DNA from: a virus
Lineage: Duplodnaviria > Heunggongvirae > Uroviricota > Caudoviricetes
IMG/VR virus record: IMGVR_UViG_2718218309_000002
Length of the DNA: 35,391 nt
Reading direction: 5' to 3' (one strand)
This document shows positions 14,279 through 31,814 of the stretch, one piece after another. Positions within the stretch are counted from its first letter, which is position 1, and each line of letters starts with the position of its first letter. The position numbers and the translations under genes are program-made. The notes beneath the pieces are model-generated. The model was not told where the DNA came from. It worked only from the letters and a program-made list of their open reading frames with translations, and searched no databases.

Positions 14279-14451
14279 GAATACCTCGCCGTGATGAATA
14301 CACGGCAAGGCTACTGAGTCGCGCCCCGCGATTCGCTAAGGTGCTGTTGTGTCAGTGATAAGCCATCCGGGACTGATGGCGGAGGATGCGCATCGTCGGG
14401 AAACTGATGCCGACATGTGACTCTTCTAATCACTATTCAGGACTCCTGACA

Positions 14452-15306: not shown

Positions 15307-15364
15307 CCGGCGTCAGTCAGTCCGGGAAAACCTTCACGATTAACCCTTAATTTCAGGAAAAACT

Positions 15365-16438: not shown

Positions 16439-16441
16439 CCG

Positions 16442-17185
16442 ATGACGAGTCCCGCACAGCGCCACATGATGCGGGTCTCGGCAGCGATGACCGCGCAGCG
16501 GGAAGCCGCCCCGCTGCGACATGCAACTGTCTATGAGCAGATGCTGGTCAAGCTGGCCGCAGACCAGCGCACACTGAAAGCGATTTATTCAAAAGAGCTG
16601 AAGGCCGCGAAAAAACGCGAACTGCTGCCGTTCTGGTTGCCGTGGGTGAACGGCGTGCTGGAGCAGGGCAAAGGCGCACAGGATGACATTCTGATGACGG
16701 TCATGCTGTGGCGTCTGGATACCGGAGATATTGCCGGTGCGCTGGAGATTGCCCGTTATGCCCTGAAGTACGGTCTGACCATGCCGGGTAAACACCGCCG
16801 CACCCCGCCGTACATGTTCACCGAGGAGGTGGCGCTTGCGGCCATGCGCGCTCACGCTGCCGGTGAATCCGTGGATACCCGTCTGCTGACGGACACCCTT
16901 GAACTGACCGCCACGGCTGACATGCCTGATGAAGTGCGCGCAAAGCTGCACAAAATCACCGGTCTGTTTCTGCGTGACGCTGGTGATGCCGCAGGTGCGC
17001 TGGCGCACCTGCAACGTGCGACACAGCTCGACTGTCAGGCAGGCGTCAAAAAAGAGATTGAACGACTGGAGCGGGAACTGAAACCGAAGCCGGAGCCACA
17101 GCCAAAAGCGGCCACCCGCGCCCCGCGTAAGACCCGGAGCGTGACACCGGCAAAACGTGGACGTCCGAAAAAGAAAGCCAGTTAA
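16442..17185 (+). CDS. M: Terminase small subunit gpM (247 aa)
   Basis: 247 aa with a basic C-terminal tail; position and length match P2 gpM. Confidence 0.93.
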   Translation: MTSPAQRHMMRVSAAMTAQREAAPLRHATVYEQMLVKLAADQRTLKAIYSKELKAAKKRELLPFWLPWVNGVLEQGKGAQDDILMTVMLWRLDTGDIAGALEIARYALKYGLTMPGKHRRTPPYMFTEEVALAAMRAHAAGESVDTRLLTDTLELTATADMPDEVRAKLHKITGLFLRDAGDAAGALAHLQRATQLDCQAGVKKEIERLERELKPKPEPQPKAATRAPRKTRSVTPAKRGRPKKKAS

Positions 17186-17284
17186 CAACCGAATGCGCCC
17201 CGCGCCAGGGCGGCACGCCGGTCAGTGACGGTGAATCACCTGACACTGCACCGGCGTCCACCGCCCGACTTTTCAGAGGTAGTC

Positions 17285-17794
17285 ATGATGACGCTGATTA
17301 TTCCGCGAAAGGAGGCTCCCGTGTCCGGTGAGGGTACGGTGGTCATCCCGCAACCGGCAGGCGACGAGCCGGTGATTAAAAACACGTTCTTTTTTCCCGA
17401 TATCGACCCGAAGCGCGTCCGGGAACGTATGCGCCTTGAGCAGACCGTCGCCCCCGCCCGTCTGCGTGAGGCCATCAAGTCAGGCATGGCGGAGACGAAT
17501 GCGGAGCTGTACGAGTACCGCGAACAGAAAATTGCCGCCGGTTTTACGCGTCTGGCGGACGTTCCGGCGGACGACATCGACGGTGAAAGCATCAAAGTTT
17601 TTTACTACGAGCGCGCCGTGTGTGCGATGGCGACCGCGTCGCTTTATGAGCGTTACCGCGGCGTGGATGCCAGTGCGAAAGGAGACAAGAAGGCCGACAG
17701 CATTGACAGCACCATTGATGAGCTGTGGCGGGATATGCGCTGGGCAGTGGCGCGCATCCAGGACAAGCCGCGCTGCATCGTGAGTCAAATCTGA
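17285..17794 (+). CDS. L: Head completion / stabilisation protein gpL (169 aa)
   Basis: ORF-track frame 17225..17794; ATG ATG at 17285 preceded by GAGG gives MMTLIIPRKEAP and 169 aa. Confidence 0.88.
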   Translation: MMTLIIPRKEAPVSGEGTVVIPQPAGDEPVIKNTFFFPDIDPKRVRERMRLEQTVAPARLREAIKSGMAETNAELYEYREQKIAAGFTRLADVPADDIDGESIKVFYYERAVCAMATASLYERYRGVDASAKGDKKADSIDSTIDELWRDMRWAVARIQDKPRCIVSQI

Positions 17795-17997
17795 TGAAGA
17801 CCTTTGCGCTACAGGGCGACACGCTCGACGCCATTTGTGTCCGGTATTACGGGCGCACTGAGGGCGTGGTTGAGACCGTGCTCGCCGCAAATCCGGGACT
17901 GGCTGAACTGGGTGCGGTGCTGCCACACGGCACCGCCGTCGAACTGCCCGACGTTCAGACCGCGCCCGTGGCTGAAACTGTCAATCTGTGGGAGTAA
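17794..17997 (+). CDS. X: Tail protein gpX (67 aa)
   Basis: ORF-track frame 17725..17997; ATG at codon 24 overlaps the L stop by 1 nt; MKTFALQGDTLDAICVRYYG. Confidence 0.88.
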   Translation: MKTFALQGDTLDAICVRYYGRTEGVVETVLAANPGLAELGAVLPHGTAVELPDVQTAPVAETVNLWE

Positions 17998-18000
17998 CGC

Positions 18001-18294
18001 ATGACAGCAGAAGAAAAAAGCGTCCTGTCGCTTTTCATGATTGGGGTGCTGATTGTTGTCGGCAAGGTGCTTGCCGGTGGTGAACCCATCACCCCGCGTC
18101 TGTTTATCGGGCGCATGTTGCTCGGTGGTTTTGTCTCGATGGTTGCCGGTGTTGTTCTGGTGCAGTTTCCTGACCTGTCACTGCCTGCGGTGTGCGGCAT
18201 CGGCTCCATGCTGGGTATCGCCGGTTATCAGGTGATTGAGATTGCCATTCAGCGCCGCTTTAAGAGCAGGGGAAACAGTAATGCCGGTAATTAA
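18001..18294 (+). CDS. Y: Holin gpY
   Basis: Small protein with hydrophobic segments (LFMIGVLIVVGKVLAGG, LLGGFVSMVAGVVLV) and a charged C-terminus, first gene of the lysis cassette. Confidence 0.88.
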   Translation: MTAEEKSVLSLFMIGVLIVVGKVLAGGEPITPRLFIGRMLLGGFVSMVAGVVLVQFPDLSLPAVCGIGSMLGIAGYQVIEIAIQRRFKSRGNSNAGN

Positions 18295-18778
18295 CACGTA
18301 TCAGAATATCGCCGCCTTTCTCGACATGCTGGCGGTGTCCGAAGGGACGGCAAATCATCCGCTGACGAAAAACCGGGGCTATGACGTGATAGTCACCGGA
18401 CTGGACGGAAAGCCGGAAATTTTCACCGACTACAGTGACCACCCGTTCGCGCATGGCCGACCGGCGAAGGTGTTTAACCGTCGCGGTGAAAAATCCACGG
18501 CCTCCGGTCGCTATCAGCAGCTTTACCTGTTCTGGCCGCATTACCGCAAACAGCTTGCCCTGCCGGATTTCAGTCCGTTGTCACAGGACAGACTCGCCAT
18601 TCAGTTGATCCGCGAACGCGATGCGCTGGATGACATCCGGGCGGGACGTATTGAGCGCGCCATTTCACGCTGTCGCAATATCTGGGCGTCCCTGCCGGGA
18701 GCCGGTTACGGTCAGCGTGAGCATTCACTGGAAAAACTGGTCACCGTCTGGCGTACCGCTGGCGGCGTACCGGCTTAA
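18281..18778 (+). CDS. K: Endolysin gpK (165 aa)
   Basis: ORF-track frame 18236..18778; ATG at codon 16 preceded by AGGGGA gives MPVINTYQNIAAFLDMLAVSEGT and 165 aa. Confidence 0.9.
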   Translation: MPVINTYQNIAAFLDMLAVSEGTANHPLTKNRGYDVIVTGLDGKPEIFTDYSDHPFAHGRPAKVFNRRGEKSTASGRYQQLYLFWPHYRKQLALPDFSPLSQDRLAIQLIRERDALDDIRAGRIERAISRCRNIWASLPGAGYGQREHSLEKLVTVWRTAGGVPA

Positions 18779-18792
18779 ACGGAGTAAACACC

Positions 18793-19218
18793 ATGAAGAA
18801 ATTATCCCTTTCACTGATGCTGAATGTGTCGCTGGCGCTGATGCTGGCACTGTCCCTGATTTACCCCCAGAGCGTGGCCGTCAATTTTGTCGCCGCCTGG
18901 GCGATTCTGGCGACGGTTATCTGTGTGGTTGCCGGTGGTGTCGGCGTGTATGCCACTGAGTATGTGCTGGAACGCTACGGGCGGGAGCTGCCGCCGGAAT
19001 CGCTGGCCGTGAAGATTGTCACGGCGCTGTTTTTGCAGCCGGTGCCGTGGCGCAGGCGGTCAGTGGCTCTGGTAGTGATGGTGGCGACGTTTATCTCGCT
19101 GGTCGCTGCCGGGTGGATTTTTACCGCGCTGATTTATCTCGTGGCATCGGTGTTCTTCCGGCTGATACGTACGGCCTGCCGTCAGCGTTTTGAGGGGCGG
19201 GAACCATGTCAAAGCTGA
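18793..19218 (+). CDS. lysA: Lysis timing membrane protein LysA (141 aa)
   Basis: Multi-pass hydrophobic protein after K; P2 lysA position and length. Confidence 0.85.
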   Translation: MKKLSLSLMLNVSLALMLALSLIYPQSVAVNFVAAWAILATVICVVAGGVGVYATEYVLERYGRELPPESLAVKIVTALFLQPVPWRRRSVALVVMVATFISLVAAGWIFTALIYLVASVFFRLIRTACRQRFEGREPCQS

Positions 19219-19631
19219 TGACTGTGCTGGTTGTGTTGTTATCACTGGCGGTGGCCGGTCTGTTTCTGGTGAAACATAAAAATGCCAGCCTGCGCGCCTC
19301 GCTGGACAGGGCGAACAACGTCGCCAGCGGGCAGCAGACGACCATCACCATGCTGAAAAATCAGCTTCATGTTGCGCTCACCAGGGCAGACAAAAACGAG
19401 CTGGCGCAGGTGGCTCTGCGTCAGGAACTGGAGAACGCCGCGAAGCGTGAAGCACAGCGCGAGAAAACCATCACGAGATTACTCAATGAAAACGAAGATT
19501 TTCGCCGCTGGTACGGTGCTGACCTGCCTGATGCTGTGCGCCGGTTGCACCAGCGCCCCGCCTGCACTGACGCCAGTGATTGTCGCCAACGCCTGCCCAA
19601 AAGTGAGTCTTTGCCCGATGCCGGGCAGTGA
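19206..19631 (+). CDS. lysB: Inner-membrane spanin LysB (Rz-like, 141 aa)
   Basis: N-terminal transmembrane helix followed by a predicted coiled coil; P2 lysB position. Confidence 0.87.
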   Translation: MSKLMTVLVVLLSLAVAGLFLVKHKNASLRASLDRANNVASGQQTTITMLKNQLHVALTRADKNELAQVALRQELENAAKREAQREKTITRLLNENEDFRRWYGADLPDAVRRLHQRPACTDASDCRQRLPKSESLPDAGQ

Positions 19632-19776
19632 CCCGGAGACGAACGGCGATTTAAGTGCCGATATCCGGCAGCTTGAGAACGCGCTGGCACGCTGTGCCAG
19701 CCAGGTAAAAATGATTAAACACTGTCAGGACGAAAACGATGCTCAAACTCGACAGCCTGCGCAGGGCACTGACTGA
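19486..19776 (+). CDS. lysC: Outer-membrane lipoprotein spanin LysC (Rz1-like, 96 aa), embedded in the +1 frame of lysB
   Basis: ORF-track frame 19369..19776; ATG at codon 40 gives MKTKIFAAGTVLTCLMLCAGC, a signal peptide with a lipobox, and a Pro-rich mature part. Confidence 0.8.
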   Translation: MKTKIFAAGTVLTCLMLCAGCTSAPPALTPVIVANACPKVSLCPMPGSDPETNGDLSADIRQLENALARCASQVKMIKHCQDENDAQTRQPAQGTD

Positions 19777-20206
19777 TGCCGTCACGGTGCTGAAAACCAG
19801 CCCCGAGATGCTGCGGATATTCGTGGATAACGGGAGTATTGCCTCCACACTGGCGACGTCGTTGTCATTCGAAAAGCGTTACACGCTCAATGTGATTGTG
19901 ACCGACTTTACCGGTGATTTTGACCTGCTCATTGTGCCGGTGCTGGCGTGGCTGCGGGAAAATCAGCCCGACATCATGACCACCGACGAAGGCCAGAAAA
20001 AGGGCTTCACGTTTTATGCAGACATCAACAATGACAGCAGCTTTGATATCAGTATCAGCCTGATGCTGACCGAGCGCACGCTGGTCAGTGAGGTTGACGG
20101 TGCGCTGCATGTGAAGAATATCCCGGAACCTCCGCCGCCGGAGCCGGTCACCCGCCCGATGGAACTTTATATCAATGGTGAACTGGTGAGTAAGTGGGAT
20201 GAATGA
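19739..20206 (+). CDS. R: Tail completion protein gpR (155 aa)
   Basis: 155 aa, P2 gpR position and length. Confidence 0.9.
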   Translation: MLKLDSLRRALTDAVTVLKTSPEMLRIFVDNGSIASTLATSLSFEKRYTLNVIVTDFTGDFDLLIVPVLAWLRENQPDIMTTDEGQKKGFTFYADINNDSSFDISISLMLTERTLVSEVDGALHVKNIPEPPPPEPVTRPMELYINGELVSKWDE

Positions 20207-20651
20207 GTTTAAGCGTTTTGAAGACCGGCTGACCGGGCTGATTGAATCGCTGTCACCGTCAGGGCGTCGGCGACTGAGTGCCGAACTGGCGAAGCGCCTG
20301 CGGCAGAGTCAGCAGCGTCGGGTGATGGCACAGAAAGCCCCGGACGGCACACCCTACGCGCCACGCCAGCAGCAGAGCGCCAGAAAAAAGACCGGTCGTG
20401 TTAAGCGAAAAATGTTTGCGAAACTTATCACCAGTCGTTTTTTGCATATCCGCGCCAGCCCGGAGCAGGCATCAATGGAATTTTACGGCGGGAAGTCACC
20501 GAAAATCGCCAGTGTGCATCAGTTCGGTCTGTCGGAAGAAAACCGGAAAGACGGTAAGAAAATTGATTATCCGGCGCGTCCTCTGCTCGGCTTTACCGGT
20601 GAGGATGTGCAGATGATTGAAGAGATTATTCTGGCGCACCTCGACCGTTAG
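20199..20651 (+). CDS. S: Tail completion protein gpS (150 aa)
   Basis: 150 aa, P2 gpS position and length. Confidence 0.9.
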   Translation: MNEFKRFEDRLTGLIESLSPSGRRRLSAELAKRLRQSQQRRVMAQKAPDGTPYAPRQQQSARKKTGRVKRKMFAKLITSRFLHIRASPEQASMEFYGGKSPKIASVHQFGLSEENRKDGKKIDYPARPLLGFTGEDVQMIEEIILAHLDR

Positions 20652-20717
20652 TTGTGCCATTCCCGACACCTCATCGTCACATTGCCGCCGGTATGACCCG
20701 GCGGCATCCTTCCCGTT

Positions 20718-21353
20718 ATGAACACTCTCGCAAATATTCAGGAACTCGCGCGCGCACTGCGCAACATGATCCGCACCGGCATTATCGTCGAAACCGACCT
20801 TAACGCCGGTCGCTGCCGTGTGCAGACCGGCGGCATGTGCACCGACTGGCTTCAGTGGCTGACCCATCGCGCCGGACGTTCGTGCACATGGTGGGCACCT
20901 TCCGTGGGGGAACAGGTGTTGATTCTGTCCGTGGGCGGTGAACTCGACACGGCGTTTGTTCTGCCGGGGATTTATTCCGGCGATAATCCCGCGCCGTCTG
21001 CGTCGGCGGATGCCCTGCATATCCGTTTCCCTGACGGGGCGGTGATTGAGTATGAACCCGAAACCAGTGCACTGACGGTAAGCGGAATTAAAACGGCCAG
21101 CGTGACGGCTTCTGATTCTGTTACTGCCACGGTGCCGGTGGTCATGGTGAAAGCATCAACCCGCATCACCCTGGACACACCGGAGGTGGTCTGCACCAAC
21201 AGGCTGATTACCGGCACGCTGGAAGTGCAGAAGGGCGGGACGATGCGCGGCAACATTGAACACACCGGCGGTGAACTCTCATCAAACGGTAAGGTACTGC
21301 ATACCCATAAACACCCCGGCGACAGCGGCGGCACAACCGGGAGTCCTCTATGA
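20718..21353 (+). CDS. V: Baseplate spike protein gpV (211 aa)
   Basis: 211 aa, P2 gpV position and length. Confidence 0.92.
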   Translation: MNTLANIQELARALRNMIRTGIIVETDLNAGRCRVQTGGMCTDWLQWLTHRAGRSCTWWAPSVGEQVLILSVGGELDTAFVLPGIYSGDNPAPSASADALHIRFPDGAVIEYEPETSALTVSGIKTASVTASDSVTATVPVVMVKASTRITLDTPEVVCTNRLITGTLEVQKGGTMRGNIEHTGGELSSNGKVLHTHKHPGDSGGTTGSPL

Positions 21354-21697
21354 CAGCGCGTTATCTCGGAATGAATCGCAGTGATGGCCTGACTGTCACT
21401 GACCTTGAGCATATCAGCCAGAGTATCGGCGATATCCTGCGCACACCGGTCGGCTCACGGGTGATGCGTCGTGATTACGGCTCGTTGCTGGCGTCAATGA
21501 TTGACCAGCCGCAGACCCCGGCGCTTGAGTTGCAGATTAAGGTCGCCTGTTACATGGCCGTGCTGAAATGGGAACCCCGCGTCACCCTGTCATCCGTCAC
21601 CACGGCGCGCAGTTTTGACGGGCGAATGACGGTCACGTTAACCGGTCAGCACAACGACACCGGCCAGCCACTTTCGTTAACCATCCCTGTGAGTTGA
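21350..21697 (+). CDS. W: Baseplate wedge protein gpW (115 aa)
   Basis: 115 aa, start overlaps the V stop; P2 gpW position. Confidence 0.92.
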   Translation: MTARYLGMNRSDGLTVTDLEHISQSIGDILRTPVGSRVMRRDYGSLLASMIDQPQTPALELQIKVACYMAVLKWEPRVTLSSVTTARSFDGRMTVTLTGQHNDTGQPLSLTIPVS

Positions 21698-21701
21698 AAT
21701 C

Positions 21702-22610
21702 ATGCCGATTATCGACCTGAACCAGCTACCCGCACCGGATGTGGTCGAGGAGCTGGACTTTGAAACCATTCTTGCCGAACGCAAGGCGACACTGATTTCC
21801 CTTTACCCGGAAGACCAGCAGGAGGCGGTCGCCCGTACCCTGACACTGGAATCTGAGCCTCTCGTCAAACTGCTGGAAGAAAATGCTTATCGTGAGCTTA
21901 TCTGGCGTCAGCGTGTGAATGAGGCCGCACGGGCGGTGATGCTGGCCTGTGCCGCCGGTAATGACCTTGATGTGATTGGTGCCAATTACAACACCACGCG
22001 CCTGACTATCACCCCGGCAGATGATTCGACTATCCCGCCGACACCGGCAGTGATGGAATCTGACACCGATTATCGTCTGCGTATTCAGCAGGCTTTTGAG
22101 GGCTTAAGCGTCGCCGGGTCAGTGGGAGCCTATCAGTATCATGGCCGCAGTGCCGACGGGCGTGTCGCGGATATCTCTGTCACCAGTCCGTCTCCGGCCT
22201 GCGTCACTATCTCTGTGCTGTCACGTGAAAATAACGGCGTCGCATCCGAAGACCTGCTGGCCGTGGTGCGTAACGCCCTTAATGGCGAGGACGTCAGACC
22301 GGTGGCCGACCGCGTGACCGTGCAGTCTGCCGCCATCGTTGAATACCAGATAAACGCCACGCTGTATCTTTACCCTGGTCCCGAAAGCGAACCCATTCGC
22401 GCTGCCGCCGTGAAAAAACTGGAAGCGTATATCACTGCACAGCACCGGCTGGGGCGCGACATCCGTCTGTCTGCCATTTATGCCGCTTTGCATGTGGAAG
22501 GCGTGCAGCGTGTCGAGCTGGCCGCACCACTGGCCGACATCGTGCTCAACAGTACGCAGGCGTCTTTCTGTACCGAATACCGCGTCGTGACCGGAGGCTC
22601 GGATGAGTGA
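21702..22610 (+). CDS. J: Baseplate wedge protein gpJ (302 aa)
   Basis: 302 aa, P2 gpJ position and length. Confidence 0.93.
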   Translation: MPIIDLNQLPAPDVVEELDFETILAERKATLISLYPEDQQEAVARTLTLESEPLVKLLEENAYRELIWRQRVNEAARAVMLACAAGNDLDVIGANYNTTRLTITPADDSTIPPTPAVMESDTDYRLRIQQAFEGLSVAGSVGAYQYHGRSADGRVADISVTSPSPACVTISVLSRENNGVASEDLLAVVRNALNGEDVRPVADRVTVQSAAIVEYQINATLYLYPGPESEPIRAAAVKKLEAYITAQHRLGRDIRLSAIYAALHVEGVQRVELAAPLADIVLNSTQASFCTEYRVVTGGSDE

Positions 22611-23133
22611 TTCGCGACTGCTGCCGACCGGCTCATCACCGCTTGAAGTTGCCGCCGCAAAAGCCTGTGCGGAAATTGAAAAAACGCCGGTCAGTATTCG
22701 TGAGCTGTGGAACCCGGACACCTGTCCGGCAAATCTGCTGCCTTGGCTGGCGTGGGCGTTTTCGGTCGACAGATGGGATGAAAAGTGGCCGGAAGCGACC
22801 AAACGCGCCGTTATCCGCGATGCGTATTTCATCCACTGTCATAAAGGCACTATAGGTGCAATCCGACGCGTGGTGGAGCCGCTCGGCTATCTCATCAACG
22901 TGACGGAGTGGTGGGAAAACAGTGACCCGCCCGGCACCTTCCGGCTTGATATTGGTGTACTGGAAAGCGGTATCACAGAGGCAATGTATCAGGAAATGGA
23001 ACGGCTGATTGCTGATGCCAAACCTGCAAGCCGCCACCTTATTGGCCTGAACATTACCCGGGACATTCCCGGCTACCTGTTCGCCGGTGGTGTGGCTTAT
23101 GACGGCGATGTAATTACGGTTTACCCCGGATAA
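22603..23133 (+). CDS. I: Baseplate protein gpI (176 aa)
   Basis: 176 aa, P2 gpI position and length. Confidence 0.92.
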   Translation: MSDSRLLPTGSSPLEVAAAKACAEIEKTPVSIRELWNPDTCPANLLPWLAWAFSVDRWDEKWPEATKRAVIRDAYFIHCHKGTIGAIRRVVEPLGYLINVTEWWENSDPPGTFRLDIGVLESGITEAMYQEMERLIADAKPASRHLIGLNITRDIPGYLFAGGVAYDGDVITVYPG

Positions 23134-23143
23134 GTGAGGAATA

Positions 23144-25189
23144 ATGAGCACAAAATTCAGAACCGTTATCACCACTGCCGGTGCAGCAAAGCTGGCAGCG
23201 GCAACCGCACCGGGAGGGCGGAAGGTCAACATTACCACGATGGCCGTCGGGGATGGCGGTGGTAAATTGCCTGTCCCGGATGCCGGACAGACCGGGCTTA
23301 TCCATGAAGTCTGGCGACATGCGCTGAACAAAATCAGCCAGGACAAACGAAACAGTAATTATATTATCGCAGAGCTGGTTATTCCGCCGGAGGTGGGCGG
23401 TTTCTGGATGCGTGAGCTTGGCCTGTACGATGATGCGGGAACGTTAATTGCTGTGGCGAACATGGCCGAAAGTTATAAGCCAGCTCTTGCCGAAGGTTCA
23501 GGGCGTTCGCAGACCTGCCGCATGGTCATCATCGTCAGCAGTGTGGCCTCAGTGGAGCTGACCATTGACACCACAACGGTGATGGCGACGCAGGATTACG
23601 TTGATGACAAAATTGCAGAACATGAACAGTCACGACGTCACCCGGACGCCTCGCTGACAGCAAAAGGTTTTACTCAGTTAAGCAGTGCGACCAACAGCAC
23701 GTCTGAAACACTGGCCGCAACGCCGAAAGCGGTAAAGGCCGCGTATGACCTGGCTAACGGGAAATATACCGCACAGGACGCCACCACAGCGCGAAAAGGC
23801 CTTGTCCAGCTTAGTAGCGCCACCAACAGCACGTCTGAAACGCTCGCCGCAACACCAAAAGCCGTTAAGACGGTAATGGATGAAACGAACAAAAAAGCGC
23901 CATTAAACAGCCCTGCACTGACCGGAACGCCAACGACGCCAACTGCGCGACAGGGAACGAATAATACTCAGATCGCAAACACGGCTTTCGTTATGGCCGC
24001 GATTGCCGCCCTTGTAGACTCGTCGCCTGACGCACTGAATACGCTGAACGAGCTGGCGGCGGCGCTGGGCAATGACCCGAATTTTGCTACCACCATGACT
24101 AATGCGCTTGCGGGTAAGCAACCGAAAGATGCTACCCTGACGGCGTTGGCGGGGCTTGCTACTGCGGCAGACAGGTTTCCGTATTTTACGGGGAATGATG
24201 TTGCCAGCCTGGCAACCCTGACAAAAGTCGGACGGGATATTCTGGCTAAAGCGACCGTTACTGCCGTTATCGAATACCTCGGTTTGCAGGAAACGGTAAA
24301 CAGGGCCAGGAACGCGGTGCAAAAGAATGGCGATACCTTGTCCGGTGGGCTTACTTTTGAAAACGACTCAATCCTTGCCTGGATTCGAAATACTGACTGG
24401 GCAAAGATTGGATTAAAAAATGATGCCGACAGCGATACTGATTCATATATGTGGTTTGAAACAGGTGACAACGGCAATGAATATTTCAAATGGAGAAGTC
24501 GCCAGAGCACCACAACAAAAGACCTGATGAATCTTAAATGGGATGCTCTGTATGTTCTTGTTAAAGCCCTTTTCAGCAGTGAAGTAAAAATATCTACAGT
24601 CAATGCACTGAGGATATTTAATTCATCTTTTGGGGCTATTTTTCGCCGTTCTGAAGAAAACCTGTATATCATCCCTACACGAGAAAATGAGGGTGAAAAT
24701 GGAGATATTGGGCCATTAAGGCCATTCGGCATCAACTTAAGAACAGGAGTTGTGTCTGTTGGTAATGGTGCCAGGATTGATGGCGGGCTGGCACTTGGCA
24801 CGAATAACGCGTTGGGTGGGAACTCTATTGTTCTTGGTGATAACGATACCGGATTTAAACAAAATGGCGATGGTAATCTGGATGTTTATGCTAATAACGT
24901 CCATGTTATGCGCTTTGTTTCCGGAAGCATTCAAAGTAATAAGACCATAAATATTACGGGGCGTGTTAATCCCTCGGATTACGGTAACTTTGATTCCCGC
25001 TATGTGAGAGATATCAGACTTGGTACACGTGTTGTGCAGACCATGCAGAAAGGCGTGATGTATGAAAAGTCAGGCCATGCAATTACGGGGCTTGGTATTG
25101 TCGGTGAAGTTGATGGCGATGATCCGGCAGTATTCAGACCAATACAAAAATACATCAATGGCACATGGTATAACGTTGCGCAGGTGTAA
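23144..25189 (+). CDS. H: Tail fibre protein gpH (681 aa), mosaic
   Basis: N-terminal MSTKFRTVITTAGAAKLAAA region is P2 gpH-like; internal duplicated motif QLSSATNSTSETLAATPKAVK; AT-rich C-terminal part from about 24300. Confidence 0.92.
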   Translation: MSTKFRTVITTAGAAKLAAATAPGGRKVNITTMAVGDGGGKLPVPDAGQTGLIHEVWRHALNKISQDKRNSNYIIAELVIPPEVGGFWMRELGLYDDAGTLIAVANMAESYKPALAEGSGRSQTCRMVIIVSSVASVELTIDTTTVMATQDYVDDKIAEHEQSRRHPDASLTAKGFTQLSSATNSTSETLAATPKAVKAAYDLANGKYTAQDATTARKGLVQLSSATNSTSETLAATPKAVKTVMDETNKKAPLNSPALTGTPTTPTARQGTNNTQIANTAFVMAAIAALVDSSPDALNTLNELAAALGNDPNFATTMTNALAGKQPKDATLTALAGLATAADRFPYFTGNDVASLATLTKVGRDILAKATVTAVIEYLGLQETVNRARNAVQKNGDTLSGGLTFENDSILAWIRNTDWAKIGLKNDADSDTDSYMWFETGDNGNEYFKWRSRQSTTTKDLMNLKWDALYVLVKALFSSEVKISTVNALRIFNSSFGAIFRRSEENLYIIPTRENEGENGDIGPLRPFGINLRTGVVSVGNGARIDGGLALGTNNALGGNSIVLGDNDTGFKQNGDGNLDVYANNVHVMRFVSGSIQSNKTINITGRVNPSDYGNFDSRYVRDIRLGTRVVQTMQKGVMYEKSGHAITGLGIVGEVDGDDPAVFRPIQKYINGTWYNVAQV

Positions 25190-25192
25190 ATT

Positions 25193-25720
25193 ATGCAGCA
25201 TTTAAAGAACATTAAGTCAGGTAATCCCAAAACAAAAGAACAATATCAGCTAACAAAGAATTTTGATGTTATCTGGTTATGGTCCGAAGACGGAAAAAAC
25301 TGGTATGAAGAAGTAAGTAATTTTCAGGAAGACACAATAAAGATTGTTTACGATGAAAATAATATTATTGTCGCCATCACCAGAGATGCTTCAACGCTTA
25401 ATCCTGAAGGTTTTAGCGTCGTTGAGGTTCCTGATATTACTGCCAACCGGCGTGCTGATGACTCTGGTAAATGGATGTTTAAGGATGGTGCCGTGATTAA
25501 GCGGATTTATACGGCAGACGAACAGCAGCAACTGGCGGAATTACATAAGGCAGCTTTGCTTTCCGAAGCTGAATCCGTGATTTTGCCGCTGGAGCGCGCG
25601 GTCAGGCTGAATATGGCAACAGATGAGGAGCGTAGTCGACTGGAGGCATGGGAACGCTATAGTGTTCTGGTCAGTCGTGTGGATCCTGCAAATCCTGAAT
25701 GGCCGGAAATGCCGCAATAA
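25193..25720 (+). CDS. G: Tail fibre assembly chaperone gpG (175 aa)
   Basis: 175 aa immediately after H; AT-rich N-terminal half and GC-richer C-terminal half. Confidence 0.9.
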
Positions 25721-25935
25721 GTTGTATGAGCTCTAGTGTGGGCTTACATATCTATGGCACAGAGTAAAGCCTAATCTGACAGTCCACTCTGTGCCAGAGG
25801 TGGGCATTGCTGATGTCATAAAATATTATGCCAGCAGCCGTCTTAGGGGAGTGTTTACATTTCAATGATCGGGTATGATCTCGGCATGTTAATGGTTTAT
25901 TACTAAATGCTTGCGCCTATCTTTATGGAGGAGTA

Positions 25936-26835
25936 ATGAGTGGTATTCGTATAACTCAGGCTATTGATAACAATCAGATTTTAGTAAATGTAAATACTTT
26001 TAATTATAGTGTTAATCCCTATCCACTCAAATGTCCTGACCCAAATTGCTCTGCTCATTTGGTGTATGTCAAAAGCCATATTCGTCGGAGTTTTAATAAA
26101 ACCTTGCATATCCCCGCCTTCTTTAGACTGGAAAAAAATTTCACGCATGACAAATTATGTCAGTATGGAACTTCAGGATTGAATACAATTTATGCAAGTG
26201 ATTCCAGTCATGATATCAGCCGTGCGCTTGCCACAGGTAATAATATATTCCGTATACATATACTCGATGAAGATGATATCTCTAAATTAAGCAGAAAAGC
26301 TGCAGCTATGCAGGCAAATCCACCTTCTGATACTACAGACCGCGTTTATGTCAAGAGAGGTCGGAAAGCCCCCTATGTGAAGAACATGGATAGCTTACGG
26401 GAGATCTATGAATATGGAAAAGCTCACCCCAACAAGAGAAACAGCATAAAAATTGTTACTGGAACAAGTACTGTAACGTGGTCTGATTTTTTCTATGAAA
26501 CAACGCAGTTAGAACGATTGTCAACTTACCTCCAGAAAGTAAAAATAGCTCAGGTTGCTGTAATTATGAAAGTGCATGTGGCGAGAATCCCTATGGCGAA
26601 ATTTAATTATCGACACTTCATTGAAGGTTCGCCAATGAGGATAAAAGGGGGCTTTAATATATATCCTACGATTCAATTAGGAAATGTTACTCCAAAATTA
26701 TTTCCGTTGAGTAGCATTGTCATGGTACTCGGTAAATTTACTATTCCAACAAATAGAAAAATGATAATGGATCCAACATTTGAGCGTGAAGTCAGAACCA
26801 TAGTTTCTAGTGAAGAGCAAGTGCTAATTCTTTGA
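25936..26835 (+). CDS. Hypothetical cargo protein in the Z/fun slot (299 aa), candidate defence or exclusion factor
   Basis: ATG at 25936 preceded by GGAGGAG; AT-rich; lies between G and FI where P2 carries Z/fun; no recognisable catalytic motif or transmembrane segment; contains a CPDPNCSAH element. Confidence 0.75.
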   Translation: MSGIRITQAIDNNQILVNVNTFNYSVNPYPLKCPDPNCSAHLVYVKSHIRRSFNKTLHIPAFFRLEKNFTHDKLCQYGTSGLNTIYASDSSHDISRALATGNNIFRIHILDEDDISKLSRKAAAMQANPPSDTTDRVYVKRGRKAPYVKNMDSLREIYEYGKAHPNKRNSIKIVTGTSTVTWSDFFYETTQLERLSTYLQKVKIAQVAVIMKVHVARIPMAKFNYRHFIEGSPMRIKGGFNIYPTIQLGNVTPKLFPLSSIVMVLGKFTIPTNRKMIMDPTFEREVRTIVSSEEQVLIL

Positions 26836-27029
26836 AATCAAGAGGATTTGGCTCGGATGATTATGTGCGGCTTATAACCATAACGTAATGAGCGGATTTT
26901 TCTACTGCTTTTTATCATTTTGGTTAACTAAAACTAACCTCTGCTCCTCGCTCAAAGCAGACTGTCAGATTTGATAGCGTTTTGGCTATGTAAATTGTCA
27001 GTCGGAAAATGAGTGAGTACAAATCAGGA

Positions 27030-27058
27030 CAGGCGGGCGAATTGCCTGCCTTTTCTTT
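27030..27058 (+). terminator. Weak hairpin plus T-run downstream of the Z/fun-slot gene
   Basis: CAGGC-GGGCGAATT-GCCTG followed by CCTTTTCTTT; only a 5-bp stem. Confidence 0.25.
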
Positions 27059-27154
27059 ATCTGTTGTTTCATCTACTGACCAGCCAGGTCAAATAGCGTC
27101 TCATGCACTGCCCAACAGAAAATAGTTGCACCCATTAACCACGGAGTTAAACGG

Positions 27155-28345
27155 ATGAGTGACTATCATCACGGCGTGCAGGTGCTGGAGATTAACGACG
27201 GCACCCGCGTCATTTCCACCGTATCCACCGCCATTGTTGGCATGGTCTGCACGGCCAGCGATGCGGATGCGGAAATCTTCCCCCTCAATAAACCGGTGCT
27301 GATTACCAATGTGCAGAGTGCAATTGCAAAGGCCGGTAAAAAAGGCACGCTGGCGGCGTCGTTGCAGGCTATCGCCGACCAGTCAAAACCGGTCACCGTT
27401 GTCGTACGTGTGGAAGACGGCACCGGCGAAGACGAAGAAACGAAACTCGCGCAGACCGTTTCCAATATCATCGGCACCACTGACGAAAACGGTCAGTACA
27501 CCGGACTGAAGGCCCTGCTGGCGGCAGAGTCGGTAACCGGTGTTAAACCGCGTATTCTCGGCGTGCCGGGACTGGACACCAAAGAGGTGGCTGTTGCACT
27601 GGCATCAGTCTGTCAGAAGCTGCGCGCTTTCGGGTATATCAGCGCATGGGGCTGTAAAACCATTTCCGAGGTGAAAGCCTACCGCCAGAATTTCAGCCAG
27701 CGTGAGCTGATGGTCATCTGGCCGGATTTCCTCGCATGGGATACGGTCGCCAGTACCACCGCCACCGCGTATGCCACCGCCCGTGCGCTGGGTCTGCGCG
27801 CTAAAATGGACCAGGAGCAGGGCTGGCATAAAACGCTGTCCAACGTCGGGGTGAACGGTGTTACCGGCATCAGCGCGTCCGTATTCTGGGATTTGCAGGA
27901 GTCCGGCACCGATGCTGACCTGCTTAACGAGTCAGGCGTCACAACGCTGATTCGCCGTGACGGTTTCCGCTTCTGGGGTAACCGTACCTGCTCTGATGAT
28001 CCGCTGTTCCTCTTTGAAAACTACACCCGCACCGCGCAGGTGCTGGCCGACACGATGGCTGAGGCGCACATGTGGGCGGTGGACAAGCCCATCACCGCAA
28101 CGCTGATTCGCGACATCGTTGACGGCATCAATGCCAAATTCCGTGAGCTGAAAACAAACGGCTATATCGTGGATGCGACCTGCTGGTTCAGCGAAGAGTC
28201 CAACGATGCGGAAACCCTCAAGGCCGGAAAACTGTATATCGACTACGACTATACCCCGGTGCCTCCTCTTGAAAATCTGACCCTGCGCCAGCGCATTACC
28301 GATAAATACCTGGCAAATCTGGTCACTTCGGTTAACAGCAATTAA
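27155..28345 (+). CDS. FI: Tail sheath protein gpFI (396 aa)
   Basis: 396 aa, P2 gpFI position and length. Confidence 0.96.
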   Translation: MSDYHHGVQVLEINDGTRVISTVSTAIVGMVCTASDADAEIFPLNKPVLITNVQSAIAKAGKKGTLAASLQAIADQSKPVTVVVRVEDGTGEDEETKLAQTVSNIIGTTDENGQYTGLKALLAAESVTGVKPRILGVPGLDTKEVAVALASVCQKLRAFGYISAWGCKTISEVKAYRQNFSQRELMVIWPDFLAWDTVASTTATAYATARALGLRAKMDQEQGWHKTLSNVGVNGVTGISASVFWDLQESGTDADLLNESGVTTLIRRDGFRFWGNRTCSDDPLFLFENYTRTAQVLADTMAEAHMWAVDKPITATLIRDIVDGINAKFRELKTNGYIVDATCWFSEESNDAETLKAGKLYIDYDYTPVPPLENLTLRQRITDKYLANLVTSVNSN

Positions 28346-28357
28346 GGAGCCTGACCG

Positions 28358-28876
28358 ATGGCAATGCCGCGCAAACTCAAGTTAATGAACGTCTTTCTGA
28401 ACGGCTACAGCTATCAGGGCGTTGCAAAGTCCGTCACGCTGCCAAAACTGACCCGTAAGCTCGAAAACTATCGCGGTGCGGGGATGAACGGCAGCGCACC
28501 GGTAGACCTCGGCCTTGATGACGATGCGCTGTCAATGGAGTGGTCGCTCGGTGGCTTCCCGGATTCGGTTATCTGGGAGCTTTACGCCGCAACCGGTGTG
28601 GATGCTGTGCCGATTCGTTTTGCAGGCTCTTACCAGCGTGACGATACCGGCGAAACGGTGGCCGTCGAAGTGGTCATGCGTGGACGTCAGAAAGAAATCG
28701 ACACCGGCGAGGGCAAACAGGGAGAAGACACCGAGTCGAAAATCTCCGTGGTCTGCACCTATTTCCGGCTGACGATGGACGGTAAGGAGCTGGTCGAAAT
28801 CGACACCATCAACATGATTGAGAAGGTGAACGGCGTCGACCGGCTGGAGCAACACCGCCGCAATATCGGCCTGTGA
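28358..28876 (+). CDS. FII: Tail tube protein gpFII (172 aa)
   Basis: 172 aa, P2 gpFII position and length. Confidence 0.96.
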   Translation: MAMPRKLKLMNVFLNGYSYQGVAKSVTLPKLTRKLENYRGAGMNGSAPVDLGLDDDALSMEWSLGGFPDSVIWELYAATGVDAVPIRFAGSYQRDDTGETVAVEVVMRGRQKEIDTGEGKQGEDTESKISVVCTYFRLTMDGKELVEIDTINMIEKVNGVDRLEQHRRNIGL

Positions 28877-28932
28877 TTTTCATCCGGTCAGCCTGGCTGA
28901 CCGGTTAACCCCGATTCAGAAGTGAGAAAACC

Positions 28933-29208
28933 ATGAACAAAGAAAATGTGATTACCCTGGACAATCCGGTCAAGCGTGGTGAGCAGGTTATCGAACAGGT
29001 CACGCTGATGAAACCCAATGCCGGGACGCTGCGCGGTGTCAGTCTGGCTGCGGTCGCAAACTCCGAAGTCGATGCGCTGATTAAGGTGCTGCCGCGCATG
29101 ACGGCACCAATGCTGACCGAGCAGGAGGTCGCCGCGCTGGAACTGCCTGACCTTGTGGCGCTGGCCGGTAAGGTGGTCGGTTTTTTGTCGCCGAACTCGG
29201 TGCAGTGA
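28933..29208 (+). CDS. E: Tail assembly chaperone gpE (91 aa)
   Basis: 91 aa ending GFLSPNSVQ; contains a TTTTTTG slippery site near its 3' end. Confidence 0.92.
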   Translation: MNKENVITLDNPVKRGEQVIEQVTLMKPNAGTLRGVSLAAVANSEVDALIKVLPRMTAPMLTEQEVAALELPDLVALAGKVVGFLSPNSVQ

Positions 29209-29360
29209 CGTTCCCGAAAAATTTCTCGGTCGATGACCTGATGGCGGATGTGGCAGTGATATTTCACTGGCCGCCATCAGAACTGTATCCCATGAGCCTG
29301 ACCGAACTCATCACATGGCGCGAAAAGGCGCTCCGGCGAAGCGGAAACACGAATGAGTGA
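28933..29360 (+). CDS. E': Tail assembly chaperone gpE+E' (programmed -1 frameshift product, about 142 aa)
   Basis: Slippery heptamer TTTTTTG at 29181..29187; the -1 frame continues ...VAELGAVTFPKNFSVDDLMADVAVIFHWPPSELYPMSLTELITWREKALRRSGNTNE to a TGA overlapping the T start. Confidence 0.75.
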
Positions 29361-31800
29361 CAATGTAAAATTACAGGTATTGCTCAGGGCTGTTGACCAG
29401 GCATCCCGCCCGTTTAAATCCATCCGTACAGCGAGCAGGTCGCTGTCGGGTGATATCCGGGAAACACAAAAATCACTGCGCGAGCTGAACGGTCAGGCAT
29501 CCCGTATTGAGGGATTCCGCAAGACCAGTGCACAGCTCGCCGTGACTGGTCATGCACTTGAAAAGGCACGGCAGGAGGCCGAAGCCCTTGCCACACAGTT
29601 TAAAAACACCGAGCGTCCGACCCGTGCTCAGGCGAAAGTGCTGGAATCCGCAAAGCGAGCAGCGGAGGACTTACAGGCGAAATATAACCGCCTGACGGAT
29701 TCCGTTAAACGCCAGCAGCGGGAACTGGCTGCTGTGGGAATTAATACCCGCAATCTTGCACATGATGAGCAGGGGCTGAAAAACCGTATCAGTGAAACCA
29801 CCGCGCAGCTTAACCGGCAGCGTGACGCGCTGGCGCGTGTCAGTGCGCAACAGGCAAAACTTAACGCAGTAAAACAGCGTTATCAGGCCGGAAAGGAACT
29901 GGCCGGAACTATGGCCTCAGTGGGCGCTGCCGGTGTGGGGATTGCGGCGGCGGGAACGATGGCCGGTGTTAAGTTGCTGATGCCCGGTTATGAGTTTGCG
30001 CAGAAAAACTCAGAATTGCAGGCCGTGCTCGGCGTGGCAAAAGACTCCGCCGAAATGGCCGCACTCCGCAAGCAGGCGCGCCAGCTCGGTGACAATACTG
30101 CCGCCTCGGCGGATGATGCAGCCGGTGCACAGATTATCATTGCGAAAGCCGGTGGAGATGCTGCGGCTATTCAGGCGGCAACGCCGGTCACGCTGAATAT
30201 GGCACTGGCGAATCAGCGGTCGATGGAAGAAAACGCGCAACTGTTGCTGGGGACTAAGGCATCCTTTCAACTGTCAAATGATGATGTCAGTCATGTGGGC
30301 GACGTGTTGTCGGCAACGATGAATAAGTCGGCGGCTGATTTTCAGGGACTCAGTGATGCACTGACTTATCTCGGCCCGGTTGCGAAGACGGCAGGTGTAA
30401 GTCTTGAGCAGGCAGCAGCCATGACAGGTGTGCTGCATGACAATAACATCAGGGGGTCAATGGCGGGTACGGGTAGCAGTGCCGTTGTCACCCGATTACA
30501 GGCTCCGACAGGGAAAGCATGGGATGCACTCAAAGAGCTTGGCGTTAAAACCTCGGACAAAAAGGGAAATATGCGCCCGTTGTTCACCATTCTGAAAGAG
30601 ATTCAGGCCAGCTTTGATAAACACAAGCTGGGAACGTCTCAGAAGGGGGAATACCTTAAAACCATTTTTGGTGAGGAAGCCCTGAAATCAGCGAACGTTT
30701 TACTGGCAGCGGCAGCAAGCGGAAAACTGGATACGCTGACCGCCACGCTGAAAGCCTCGGACGGTAAAACGGAAGAGCTGGTTAAAATCATGCAGGATAA
30801 CCTCGGCGGTGACTTTAAGGAGTTTCAGTCCGCTTATGAGGCGGTGGGGACTGACCTGTTTGACCAGCAGGAAGGCGCACTGCGTAAGCTCACACAGACG
30901 GCCACAAAGTATGTGTTAAAACTCGACGGCTGGATCCAGAAAAACAAATCACTGGCGTCAACCATCGGCCTCATTGTCGGTGGCGCACTGGCGCTGACTG
31001 GCGTCATCGGTGCCATTGGCCTCGTAGCCTGGCCGGTTATCACCGGCATCAATGCCATCATCGCGGCAGCAGGCGCAATGGGGGCAATCTTCACGACGGT
31101 TGGCAGTGCTGTTATGACGGCCATCGGGGCGATTAGCTGGCCGGTTGTTGCCGTGGTGGCCGCCATTGTCGCCGGGGCGTTGCTTATTCGTAAATACTGG
31201 GAGCCTGTCAGCGCATTCTTTGGCGGTGTGGTTGAAGGGCTGAAAGCGGCATTTGCGCCGGTGGGGGAACTGTTCACGCCACTTAAACCGGTGTTTGACT
31301 GGCTCGGTGAAAAGTTACAGGCCGCGTGGCAGTGGTTTAAAAACCTGATTGCCCCGGTCAAAGCCACCCAGGACACCCTGAACCGTTGCCGTGACACGGG
31401 TGTCATGTTCGGGCAGGCACTGGCTGACGCGTTGATGCTGCCGCTTAATGCGTTCAACAAACTGCGCAGTGGTATTGACTGGGTACTGGAAAAACTCGGT
31501 GTCATCAACAAAGAGTCAGACACACTTGACCAGACCGCCGCAAGGACTAATGCCGCCACGTATGGCACCGGTGGTTATATTCCGGCGACCAGCTCTTATG
31601 CAGGCTATCAGGCTTATCAGCCGGTCACGGCACCGGCTGGCCGCTCTTATGTGGACCAGAGTAAAAACGAATATCACATCAGCCTGACCGGTGGTACTGC
31701 GCCGGGGACACAGCTTGACCGCCAGTTACAGGATGCGCTCGAAAAATACGAGCGGGATAAACGTGCGCGTGCCCGTGCCAGCATGATGCATGACGGTTAA
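29353..31800 (+). CDS. T: Tail tape measure protein gpT (815 aa)
   Basis: 815 aa with a coiled-coil N-terminus and a hydrophobic Gly/Ala-rich central region; P2 gpT position. Confidence 0.95.
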   Translation: MSDNVKLQVLLRAVDQASRPFKSIRTASRSLSGDIRETQKSLRELNGQASRIEGFRKTSAQLAVTGHALEKARQEAEALATQFKNTERPTRAQAKVLESAKRAAEDLQAKYNRLTDSVKRQQRELAAVGINTRNLAHDEQGLKNRISETTAQLNRQRDALARVSAQQAKLNAVKQRYQAGKELAGTMASVGAAGVGIAAAGTMAGVKLLMPGYEFAQKNSELQAVLGVAKDSAEMAALRKQARQLGDNTAASADDAAGAQIIIAKAGGDAAAIQAATPVTLNMALANQRSMEENAQLLLGTKASFQLSNDDVSHVGDVLSATMNKSAADFQGLSDALTYLGPVAKTAGVSLEQAAAMTGVLHDNNIRGSMAGTGSSAVVTRLQAPTGKAWDALKELGVKTSDKKGNMRPLFTILKEIQASFDKHKLGTSQKGEYLKTIFGEEALKSANVLLAAAASGKLDTLTATLKASDGKTEELVKIMQDNLGGDFKEFQSAYEAVGTDLFDQQEGALRKLTQTATKYVLKLDGWIQKNKSLASTIGLIVGGALALTGVIGAIGLVAWPVITGINAIIAAAGAMGAIFTTVGSAVMTAIGAISWPVVAVVAAIVAGALLIRKYWEPVSAFFGGVVEGLKAAFAPVGELFTPLKPVFDWLGEKLQAAWQWFKNLIAPVKATQDTLNRCRDTGVMFGQALADALMLPLNAFNKLRSGIDWVLEKLGVINKESDTLDQTAARTNAATYGTGGYIPATSSYAGYQAYQPVTAPAGRSYVDQSKNEYHISLTGGTAPGTQLDRQLQDALEKYERDKRARARASMMHDG

Positions 31801-31814
31801 GGAGGTGACGAAAA

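Follow-up and report, generated by a model that had tools for sequence, protein, structure and literature searches.

The AT-rich block at positions 24300–25450 of the 35,391-nucleotide stretch of phage DNA analysed here (the window) is very probably the distal tail-fibre module of a P2-type prophage. This module comprises the variable end of the fibre gene H and the chaperone gene G, is shared with Mu and P1, and has a GC content of its own. It would correspond to the Sv-U half of the invertible segment of Mu, P1, P7, D108 and some P2-like phages, here fixed in one orientation, with the P2-specific N-terminal part of H joined to it at an intact 26-bp gix/cix-type site. The module appears to hold its base composition (about 43–44% GC) in whichever genome carries it, and the GC content would fall just past the crossover site because the module keeps this composition. 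By comparison with homologues, the fibre would be anchored to the baseplate through the N-terminal part of H, its trimeric shaft end and receptor-binding tip would be formed by the distal part, and G would bind the fibre C-terminus and promote trimerisation. Host range would evolve by homologous recombination among copies of the module in co-resident prophages and plasmids, yielding a fine patchwork in which an 877-nt patch of pro147 type would supply the host-range region HR1, and in which HR2 would be of pro147 type at the protein level. The composition, homologies, crossover site and breakpoints described below are direct observations.

Prophage and gene layout

The prophage in the window is of P2 type (Peduovirus) and adjoins the host gene yegS; P2 (AF063097) shows 96.8% identity to the window over 83% of 24 kb. 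The late operon is collinear with that of P2, in the order I (22603–23133), H, G, a variable locus and FI (27155–28345), and the operon position (V-W-J-I-H-G, variable locus, FI) is alike in the two phages. H encodes a tail fibre protein of 681 residues (23144–25189), as indicated by its open reading frame, Pfam matches and the collinear H genes of P2, Wphi, pro147 and HQ103. G encodes a tail fibre assembly protein (Tfa) of 175 residues (25193–25720), as indicated by Pfam Caudo_TAP and homology to Mu U. Both gene calls are correct, and all features reported here lie on the plus strand. The variable locus between G and FI (Z/fun) contains a 299-aa cargo ORF of the Wphi gp44 family (25936–26835), in the position of orf44 in Wphi and HQ103; P2, pro147, L-413C and P2_AC1 carry other genes at this locus. 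The cargo ORF gave no Pfam or PADLOC match and matched only phrog_7195, of unknown function, and an AlphaFold2 model based on an alignment of 13 sequences reached a mean pLDDT of 46.9.

Fibre protein H and its relatives

The N-terminus of H (residues 1–151) matches the baseplate-attachment domain Phage_tail_fib collar (PF12571) with an E-value of 2.5e-58. It is followed by two matches to Phage_fiber_2 (PF03406) and a Gp34_trimer match at residues 419–529; this order of domains and the position between I and G are those of a P2-type gpH. The protein falls into two parts. The constant, P2-specific part (residues 1–374; 23144–24266; GC 0.553) shows 96–100% nucleotide identity to P2, shares 95% identity with the constant fibre part of the Xuanwuvirus 503458 up to the crossover site of that phage, and showed no homology to the variable segments of Mu or P1. 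The variable distal part (residues 375–681; 24267–25189; GC 0.43) is of the Mu S / P1 Sv type. It matches Mu S in PDB 5YVQ_A (chain residues 167–504) with a phmmer E-value of 2.4e-86, and its conserved parts show 83–93% nucleotide identity to the Sv segments of P1, P7 and D108. The homology to Mu S starts at the gix/cix site, and that to P1, P7 and D108 starts at 24267–24329, at or no more than about 60 nt past the annotated crossover sites or inverted repeats of these phages.

Module DNA is also found in the invertible segments of P1, P7, D108 and the P2-like Xuanwuviruses 503458 and P88, and successive segments of H and G differ in their best relative by sliding identity. The proposal in the preliminary description that distal H and G form a horizontally exchanged host-range module is borne out by the homology to Mu S and U, by these invertible segments, and by published swaps. 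Consistent with that proposal, identity to P2 is not uniform along the two genes: H is 92–100% identical to P2 H over residues 1–475, unalignable over residues 476–606 and 76% identical over its final 75 residues; for G, amino-acid identity to the P2 protein is 94%. In the unalignable part, a 68-aa segment of the window is absent from P2, and a 56-aa segment of P2 is absent from the window.

Among the closest known parallels are the G segment of Mu and D108 and the C segment of P1 and P7, in which Sv-U is homologous to H residues 375–681 plus G and has about the same GC content. Unlike these segments, the module in the window has a single fixed orientation, a P2-specific fibre N-terminus, and neither an invertase, a second site nor an Sv′-U′ set. 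In 503458, the window-type Sv-U is the copy that is unexpressed in the deposited orientation; it is 92% identical overall and 98–100% identical over 24303–25002. The constant fibre parts of 503458 and P88 resemble P2 H. However, both phages carry an invertase and both alternative tips, whereas the window carries one tip only.

A solitary crossover site

The variable part of H begins with a solitary 26-bp crossover site of the gix/cix type (Din invertase) at 24267–24292, which reads TTATCGAATACC TC GGTTTGCAGGAA and encodes the residues I-E-Y-L-G-L-Q-E. This site can be aligned to the inverted repeats annotated in D108 and to the cix sites of P1 and P7. Its left half-site is shared, with 0 mismatches, by the 503458 site on the constant side, and its right half-site, again with 0 mismatches, by the other 503458 site, and the site in H is therefore an exact hybrid of both sites of the invertible system in 503458. 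No second site was found in the window (26-mer with up to 3 mismatches; core with up to 1 mismatch). A tblastn search of the whole window with P7 Cin and the 503458 invertase gave nothing better than an E-value of 0.3 over 14 aa, and tblastn with D108 U′ and S′ matched only G and the end of H. Given that there is no second site, invertase or alternative U′/S′ set, the region is not an invertible segment.

Could the module have been installed by site-specific capture, with a Din-family invertase (Gin, Cin or Pin) acting in trans and still able to exchange it? In favour of this, the site is intact and is exactly what a crossover between both sites of 503458, a live system, would yield, and the homology to the invertible segments starts there. 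Nevertheless, capture of this kind is unlikely: the site stands alone, with no invertase or second Sv′-U′ set in the window; the boundaries of the recombination patch described below lie 50–120 nt upstream (pro147) or 55–135 nt downstream (P2_AC1) of the crossover dinucleotide; and conservation of the peptide IEYLGLQE can account for conservation of the site. With its boundaries off the crossover dinucleotide, the patch is sufficiently explained by homologous recombination, the process favoured here.

Base composition of the block

The GC content of 24300–25450 is 0.414. The late-gene backbone, measured in 1151-nt windows over 11500–24250 and 27100–33000, has a mean of 0.566 (sd 0.016, minimum 0.532), which places the block at z = −9.4. 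Maximum-likelihood change-points put the drop at 24351 (2-log-likelihood support 24316–24404) and the recovery at 25370 (support 25364–25380), the latter being codon 60 of G. The sharp fall in GC from about 24300 into the first half of G, as originally described, is thus real, with coordinates good to about 50–80 nt. The support interval of the drop falls 25–110 nt past the crossover site, not exactly on it. As for the recovery that had been described, a change-point does mark it, but it is only partial: GC reaches about 0.50 in 25400–25800 and then falls a second time, to 0.35–0.40, in 25800–27100. This second tract is a separate AT-rich island (GC 0.39) that contains the 299-aa cargo ORF and is not part of the fibre module.

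All codon positions share the drop. GC3 is 0.57 in H codons 1–374 and 0.40 in H codons 375–681; in G it is 0.35 N-terminally and 0.47 C-terminally. For GC2, the value of 0.52 declines to 0.40 in variable H and to 0.29 in N-terminal G. Overall GC within G is 0.30 over codons 1–59 and 0.51 over codons 60–175. The fall in GC3 points to a different mutational history, beyond a difference in amino-acid content alone. On the other hand, GC2 also falls and the most AT-rich piece, the N-terminus of G, is strongly conserved, and so the composition is not purely a mark of foreign origin.

These values also bear on the idea that the low GC content reflects protein constraints rather than ancestry, with beta-rich tips and the N-terminal domain of the chaperone needing Asn, Lys, Ile, Tyr and Asp and thereby AT-rich codons. 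The low GC2, the AT-richness of the conserved G N-terminus, and a GC1 of 0.66 in the helical, Ala/Glu/Arg-rich C-terminus of G are as this idea predicts. However, GC3 is largely free of amino-acid constraint and falls equally, which argues against protein constraints as the sole cause; the change in composition starts where the Mu/P1 homology starts; and the neighbouring I, FI and repeat-rich constant part of H keep a GC3 of 0.57–0.69. This explanation is accordingly considered very unlikely.

The module reading is supported by the composition of the relatives. At homologous positions in P2, GC is 0.562 in the constant part of H, 0.434 in the variable part and 0.438 in G, and both the coordinate of the drop and the codon of the crossover-like site are those seen in the window. 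Module GC is 0.43–0.45 in P2, D108, P7 and 503458 and 0.45–0.47 in P1; the backbones of P2-type phages have 0.54–0.56. Since reference P2 shows the same drop, the drop marks no replacement specific to the window phage. The composition of the block is accordingly an old property of the fibre-tip/chaperone module.

The chaperone G

G starts 4 nt past the stop codon of H and has the features of a Tfa protein, with a match to Caudo_TAP (PF02413) at an E-value of 3.2e-34. It matches Mu U in PDB 5YVQ_B, a chain of the solved Mu S–U complex, over its full length (E-value 1e-104), with about 93% identity to Mu U. In the work behind PDB 5YVQ, Mu Tfa was found to chaperone its cognate fibre and to stay on the tip (PMC9608196). 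By virtue of the identity to Mu U, G would likewise be expected to act as a chaperone of its cognate fibre and to be retained on the tip.

G is closest to its counterparts in P2, L-413C and HQ103. Over the first 95 residues, identity to P2 G reaches 97%, and the AT-rich N-terminal half is thus the more conserved half. PHROG matches divide G into an N-terminal part (1–93) and a C-terminal part (101–175). The recovery of GC within G was considered as a boundary between Tfa domains or as a recombination boundary and was rejected, as it lies at codon 60, away from the PHROG junction at about 93–101, and identity to P2 is unbroken there. The possibility that the fibre tip covaries with the N-terminal half of G and not with the C-terminal half was also rejected. 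The tip shows a correlation with each half (Spearman 0.74 and 0.71; a descriptive result only, from 14 phylogenetically non-independent fibre-chaperone pairs), and the divergence between U and U′ chaperones is C-terminal, with 69–72% identity in the N-terminal half and 33–37% in the C-terminal half.

A recent recombination patch within H

A patch at 24147–25023, of pro147 / EC9 / 503458 type, differs from pro147 (KR073660 / NC_028896) by 1 mismatch in 877 nt, compared with 98 mismatches in 1244 nt outside it (Fisher p = 2.5e-22); its flanks are 8–11% divergent. Within the patch, 24569–24982 agrees with pro147 at every position (100%); P2 has nothing collinear with this segment and aligns to it only through a displaced 119-nt stretch at 81.5%. 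The H protein of pro147 is collinear over all 681 residues, with 7 amino-acid differences. In contrast, 25024–25720, comprising the 3′ end of H and the whole of G, is 11.5% divergent from pro147 in DNA, and the cargo gene between G and FI differs. The patch boundaries were placed at 24147–24213 for pro147 and at 24346–24415 for P2_AC1, with the recent right breakpoint at about 25023. The whole patch was found in 53 of 5426 complete E. coli genomes, and parts of it in 1323 of the 5426. Roughly 2,900 E. coli genomes gave matches to the region. The allele is already deposited, in pro147, P2_AC1 and an E. coli EC9 prophage.

The patch is the sole recent exchange detectable, lying entirely within H and excluding G. 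Two parts of the preliminary description are not supported: that the GC drop delimits a replacement in the window phage, and that the chaperone was replaced together with the tip, G not having been swapped relative to P2. A recent, phage-specific replacement of 24300–25450, in which the tip and the N-terminal chaperone half were exchanged and the GC boundaries are the breakpoints, is extremely unlikely. These boundaries are real, and H does differ from its P2 counterpart within the tract, but the GC profile of P2 is the same, 24300–24568 (just past the GC drop) is still 89–96% identical to P2, the conserved N-terminal half of G shows no breakpoint at 25370–25450, and the recent patch leaves out G.

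Host-range regions

The receptor of P2 and Mu is the LPS core. Two host-range regions, HR1 and HR2, have been defined in P2-like fibres, and an HR2 swap between P88 and pro147, within H alone, alters host range (PMC5285337). In the window, the HR1 equivalent comprises H residues 529–612 (24728–24979), by pairwise alignment from P88 residues 576–695, and the HR2 equivalent comprises H residues 633–663 (25040–25132), mapped from P88 residues 716–746. Both regions are alignable and show allelic differences between phages that differ in host range. The HR1 equivalent holds the module differences from P2 and is identical to that of pro147. HR2 of the window, TMQKGVMYEKSGHAITGLGIVGEVDGDDPAV, agrees with pro147 at 29 of 31 residues and, at the two key positions, carries the residues of pro147 (I647 and P661), being of pro147 type and not of P2 type. 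HR2 adjoins the end of the patch but lies outside it, and its DNA diverges from pro147 by 7–10% and has its closest relatives in L-413C and D108. The receptor and host range of the window allele are inferred, as is the direction of the transfers: the fixed module may derive from an invertible one, or the reverse.

Engineered fibres provide a further comparison. The best engineered fusion of P2 and P1 fibres was made at H residue 370, and host range was altered when it was co-expressed with the cognate chaperone U′ (PMC9942202). This point of fusion is five residues from the natural junction.

What does the module mean for P2-type prophages?

Since 1992, when Haggard-Ljungquist, Halling and Calendar (J Bacteriol 174:1462) reportedly described P2 H and G as passing horizontally between unrelated phages, the mosaic relation of these genes to Mu and P1 has been a textbook example of horizontal fibre-gene exchange. 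Mosaicism of the fibre-tip/chaperone module is therefore already known, and the hypervariable regions of the allele have already been the subject of experiments. The case described here shows that GC change-points in tail fibre genes are unsafe as markers of recent breakpoints, since an old composition boundary here coexists with recent breakpoints at other positions (24147–24213 and about 25023). The solitary site is perhaps no mere relic: it is conceivable, at a low probability, that the fixed fibres of P2-type phages are 'frozen' invertible segments and that Din invertases acting in trans, such as Pin of e14 or those of a co-resident Mu, P1 or Xuanwuvirus, might use it. If it were still used in this way, site-specific capture of tip and chaperone cassettes from other prophages would operate beside homologous recombination. 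Overall, with HR1 and HR2 both of pro147 type, the likely host specificity of the prophage may be read from its fibre, which would be of value in annotation.

The fibre module and its base composition

The window was identified as a P2-type (Peduovirus) prophage, with 96.8% identity to P2 over 83% of a 24-kb query, adjoining host yegS (1-900, minus strand; DAGK_cat and YegS_C domains). Its integrase gene lies at 1897-2910 (minus strand) and gene I at 22603-23133. H (23144-25189) encodes a tail fibre protein of 681 residues, in which fibre repeats accompany an N-terminal P2 tail-collar domain, and G (25193-25720) its 175-residue chaperone, a Caudo_TAP tail-fibre assembly protein; both genes had been assigned correctly in the preliminary description. 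The block at 24300-25450, spanning distal H and the N-terminal part of G, has a GC content of 0.414, z = -9.4 against 1151-nt windows of the late-gene backbone (mean 0.566, sd 0.016, minimum 0.532). The GC drop reported to run from about 24300 through the first half of G was thus confirmed, with maximum-likelihood change-points at 24351 (support 24316-24404) for the fall and at 25370 (support 25364-25380), codon 60 of G, for the recovery. The recovery described there was found to be only partial, to ~0.50 over 25400-25800, before a renewed fall to 0.35-0.40 over 25800-27100 (change-points 25806 and 27170). The latter tract is an island separate from the fibre block, and contains a 299-aa ORF.

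The fall was observed at all three codon positions. GC3 goes from 0.57 in H codons 1-374 to 0.40 in codons 375-681, and it is 0.35 in the N-terminal part of G, where GC2 is 0.29; overall GC in G codons 1-59 is 0.30. Amino-acid content contributes to the AT-richness too, and a distinct history of the module is argued for as well because GC3 falls equally.

From nt 24267 (residue 375) on, H is homologous to residues 167-504 of S, the tail fibre of Mu (PDB 5YVQ chain A, E 2.4e-86), and G along its full length to Mu U (5YVQ chain B, E 1e-104). The DNA of the block is also present in the invertible segments of P1 (C segment, Sv-U), P7 (Sv'-U') and D108 (G segment), and in those of the P2-like Xuanwuviruses 503458 and P88. 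The block functions as half of such a fibre segment would, without being an invertible segment itself. The GC content of the module is 0.43-0.45 in P2, D108, P7 and 503458 and 0.45-0.47 in P1, and that of P2-type backbones is 0.54-0.56. The GC drop had been taken as the sign of an event in this phage, a reading that does not hold: in reference P2 the profile is the same at these coordinates, with GC of 0.562 in the constant and 0.434 in the variable part of H, and 0.438 in G. Given this shared profile and the low GC of the module in the carriers compared, the drop is an old property of a module circulating among unrelated phages.

Comparison with P2 and the crossover site

Identity to P2 along H and G was found not to be uniform. 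At the DNA level, 23700-24100 is 100% identical in 100-nt windows and 24200-24500 is 89-95% identical; 24569-24982 lacks a collinear match, having only a displaced 119-nt match (81.5%), and 24983-25796 is 87% identical. H residues 1-475 are 92-100% identical, residues 476-606 include a 68-aa segment that P2 lacks and miss a 56-aa P2 segment, and the last 75 residues are 76% identical. G is 94% identical overall (residues 1-95, 97%; residues 96-175, 90%). Of the proposed horizontal replacement of the tip together with its chaperone, the idea of an exchange survives, but the part exchanged relative to P2 lies within H, and G is of P2 type. The U and U' chaperone types share 69-72% identity over their N-terminal 95 residues and only 33-37% over the C-terminal 80; thus, the AT-rich N-terminal half of G is the more conserved half, not a swapped one.

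Homology to the invertible segments starts at a 26-bp sequence at 24267-24292, TTATCGAATACC TC GGTTTGCAGGAA, which aligns with the annotated D108 inverted repeats and the cix sites of P1 and P7. Each of its half-sites matches one of the two sites of 503458 with 0 mismatches, the left one that on the constant side and the right one the other. Since both half-sites match exactly, 24267-24292 is the very junction that would arise by inversion in a 503458-type phage. Neither a second copy of the site nor an invertase or alternative U'/S' set was found in the window.

Recent mosaicism

Compared with pro147 (and an E. coli EC9 prophage), only 1 mismatch was detected in 24147-25023 (877 nt), versus 98 in 1244 nt outside this patch for pro147 (Fisher p = 2.5e-22); on the right side of the patch, 25024-25720 diverges from pro147 by 11.5%. 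Over 24303-25002, identity to the silent copy that 503458 carries in its invertible segment is 98-100%. Past 25023 the best relatives change again, to L-413C and D108 (25000-25200), P2, L-413C and HQ103 (25200-25300), and HQ103 (25400-25700). The left boundary of the pro147-type patch lies at 24147-24213, 50-120 nt upstream of the crossover site, and for P2_AC1 the equivalent boundary falls at 24346-24415. The solitary intact site in H could be used by invertases supplied in trans, but these breakpoint positions argue against such use. Because the patch boundaries lie away from the site, ordinary homologous recombination among co-resident copies is sufficient to explain the pattern, and site-specific exchange is unnecessary.

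Host range

In a chimeric P2-P1 fibre built in P2, the best fusion point was H residue 370 (PMC9942202); the natural junction, at residue 375, is five residues away. When the chimera was expressed together with the cognate chaperone U', the host range for transduction changed (PMC9942202). Two hypervariable regions, HR1 and HR2, were defined in the P2-like phages P88 and pro147, and replacement of P88 HR2 by that of pro147 conferred the pro147 host range on P88 (PMC5285337). In the alignment, HR1 spans H residues 529-612 (24728-24979), and HR2 spans residues 633-663 (25040-25132). HR2 is here of pro147 type, with 29 of 31 residues identical and pro147 residues at both key positions. From this likeness we infer that virions of this prophage would have pro147-like, not P2-like, specificity; the strains on which pro147 forms plaques include K-12 and B laboratory strains and the APEC strain DE048 (PMC5285337). 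Mu Tfa is modular, its N-terminal domain binding the fibre tip and its C-terminal helical domain driving trimerisation (PMC9608196). PHROG matches divide G at about residues 93-101 and GC recovers at codon 60, so that the two boundaries differ.

The adjacent island and other features

The second AT-rich tract (25800-27100, GC 0.39) sits in the variable G-FI (Z/fun) locus, with FI at 27155-28345. P2 carries fun(Z) there, and pro147, L-413C and P2_AC1 carry other genes, whereas Wphi and HQ103 share the 299-aa ORF (gp44; 25936-26835, plus strand) with this prophage. The ORF has no match in Pfam or PADLOC, and its AlphaFold2 model (mean pLDDT 46.9) is too poor for use. Its family is small and found only in Enterobacterales (12 clusters, 65-99% identity), with invariant Cys/His near the N-terminus (C33, C38, H71, C75). 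In Morganella, a homologue neighbours genes for a reverse transcriptase and an AAA_15/AAA_21 ATPase, within an element that has an integrase and lies beside icd, a context that suggests a possible defence (anti-phage cargo) role. Consensus scans placed a promoter-like site at 25801-25829 and the first strong terminator-like hairpin after G at 27031-27051 (plus strand), downstream of the ORF and immediately ahead of the FI promoter region. Transcription of the cargo ORF may thus start both at its own promoter and, by read-through, in the late V operon.

At 7500-11100, with A (5427-7736) on one side and Q (11472-12506) on the other, GC falls to 0.32-0.35, the lowest in the window; this tract is the tin/old variable hotspot known from P2-like phages. 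A single 976-aa ORF lies there (8141-11071, minus strand), a candidate defence gene that encodes a P-loop AAA domain (AAA_22, residues 293-463) and gives weak PADLOC matches only (mad8, mad3; E about 1e-4 to 1e-5). At the prophage-host junction, between yegS and the integrase gene, a short AT-rich stretch (1001-1632, GC 0.37) contains a 125-aa ORF (1255-1632, plus strand) without a match in Pfam or PADLOC. Within H, a direct repeat (23662-23737 and 23794-23869, ~79% DNA identity) encodes the peptide ...QLSSATNSTSETLAATPKAVK... twice (Pfam Phage_fiber_2) and coincides with strong AT skew (0.29-0.42) at 23500-24000. An antisense 277-aa ORF in H (23968-24801, minus strand), with a Ser/Pro/Leu/Arg-rich translation, seems to be an artefact of the opposite reading frame.

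Relation to known phages

The AT-rich block has been described before and is of little interest. That P2 H and G are homologous to fibre genes of Mu and P1, through horizontal transfer, is claimed in the title of a 1992 paper by Haggard-Ljungquist, Halling and Calendar, and the allele found here is already deposited. Copies available for recombination are abundant: of 5426 complete E. coli genomes, 1323 contain parts of the pro147-type patch, plasmids included, and 53 contain all of it, at >=99% identity in 28 of these. This H and the Wphi-type cargo gene occur together in no complete E. coli genome or deposited phage, the best matches covering 90-91%; the prophage is simply one more recombinant. 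Inverting fibre segments have been documented in P2-like prophages of E. coli (PMC4272514). In the Xuanwuviruses 503458 (2468-2493 and 5182-5207) and P88 (4058-6206), the constant part of the fibre is still P2-H-like and adjoins an invertible segment that comes with an invertase, and in the deposited orientation of 503458 the tip and chaperone of the type found here are the unexpressed copy. Therefore, the fixed P2-type and invertible Xuanwuvirus fibres are interconvertible, by one inversion and then deletion.
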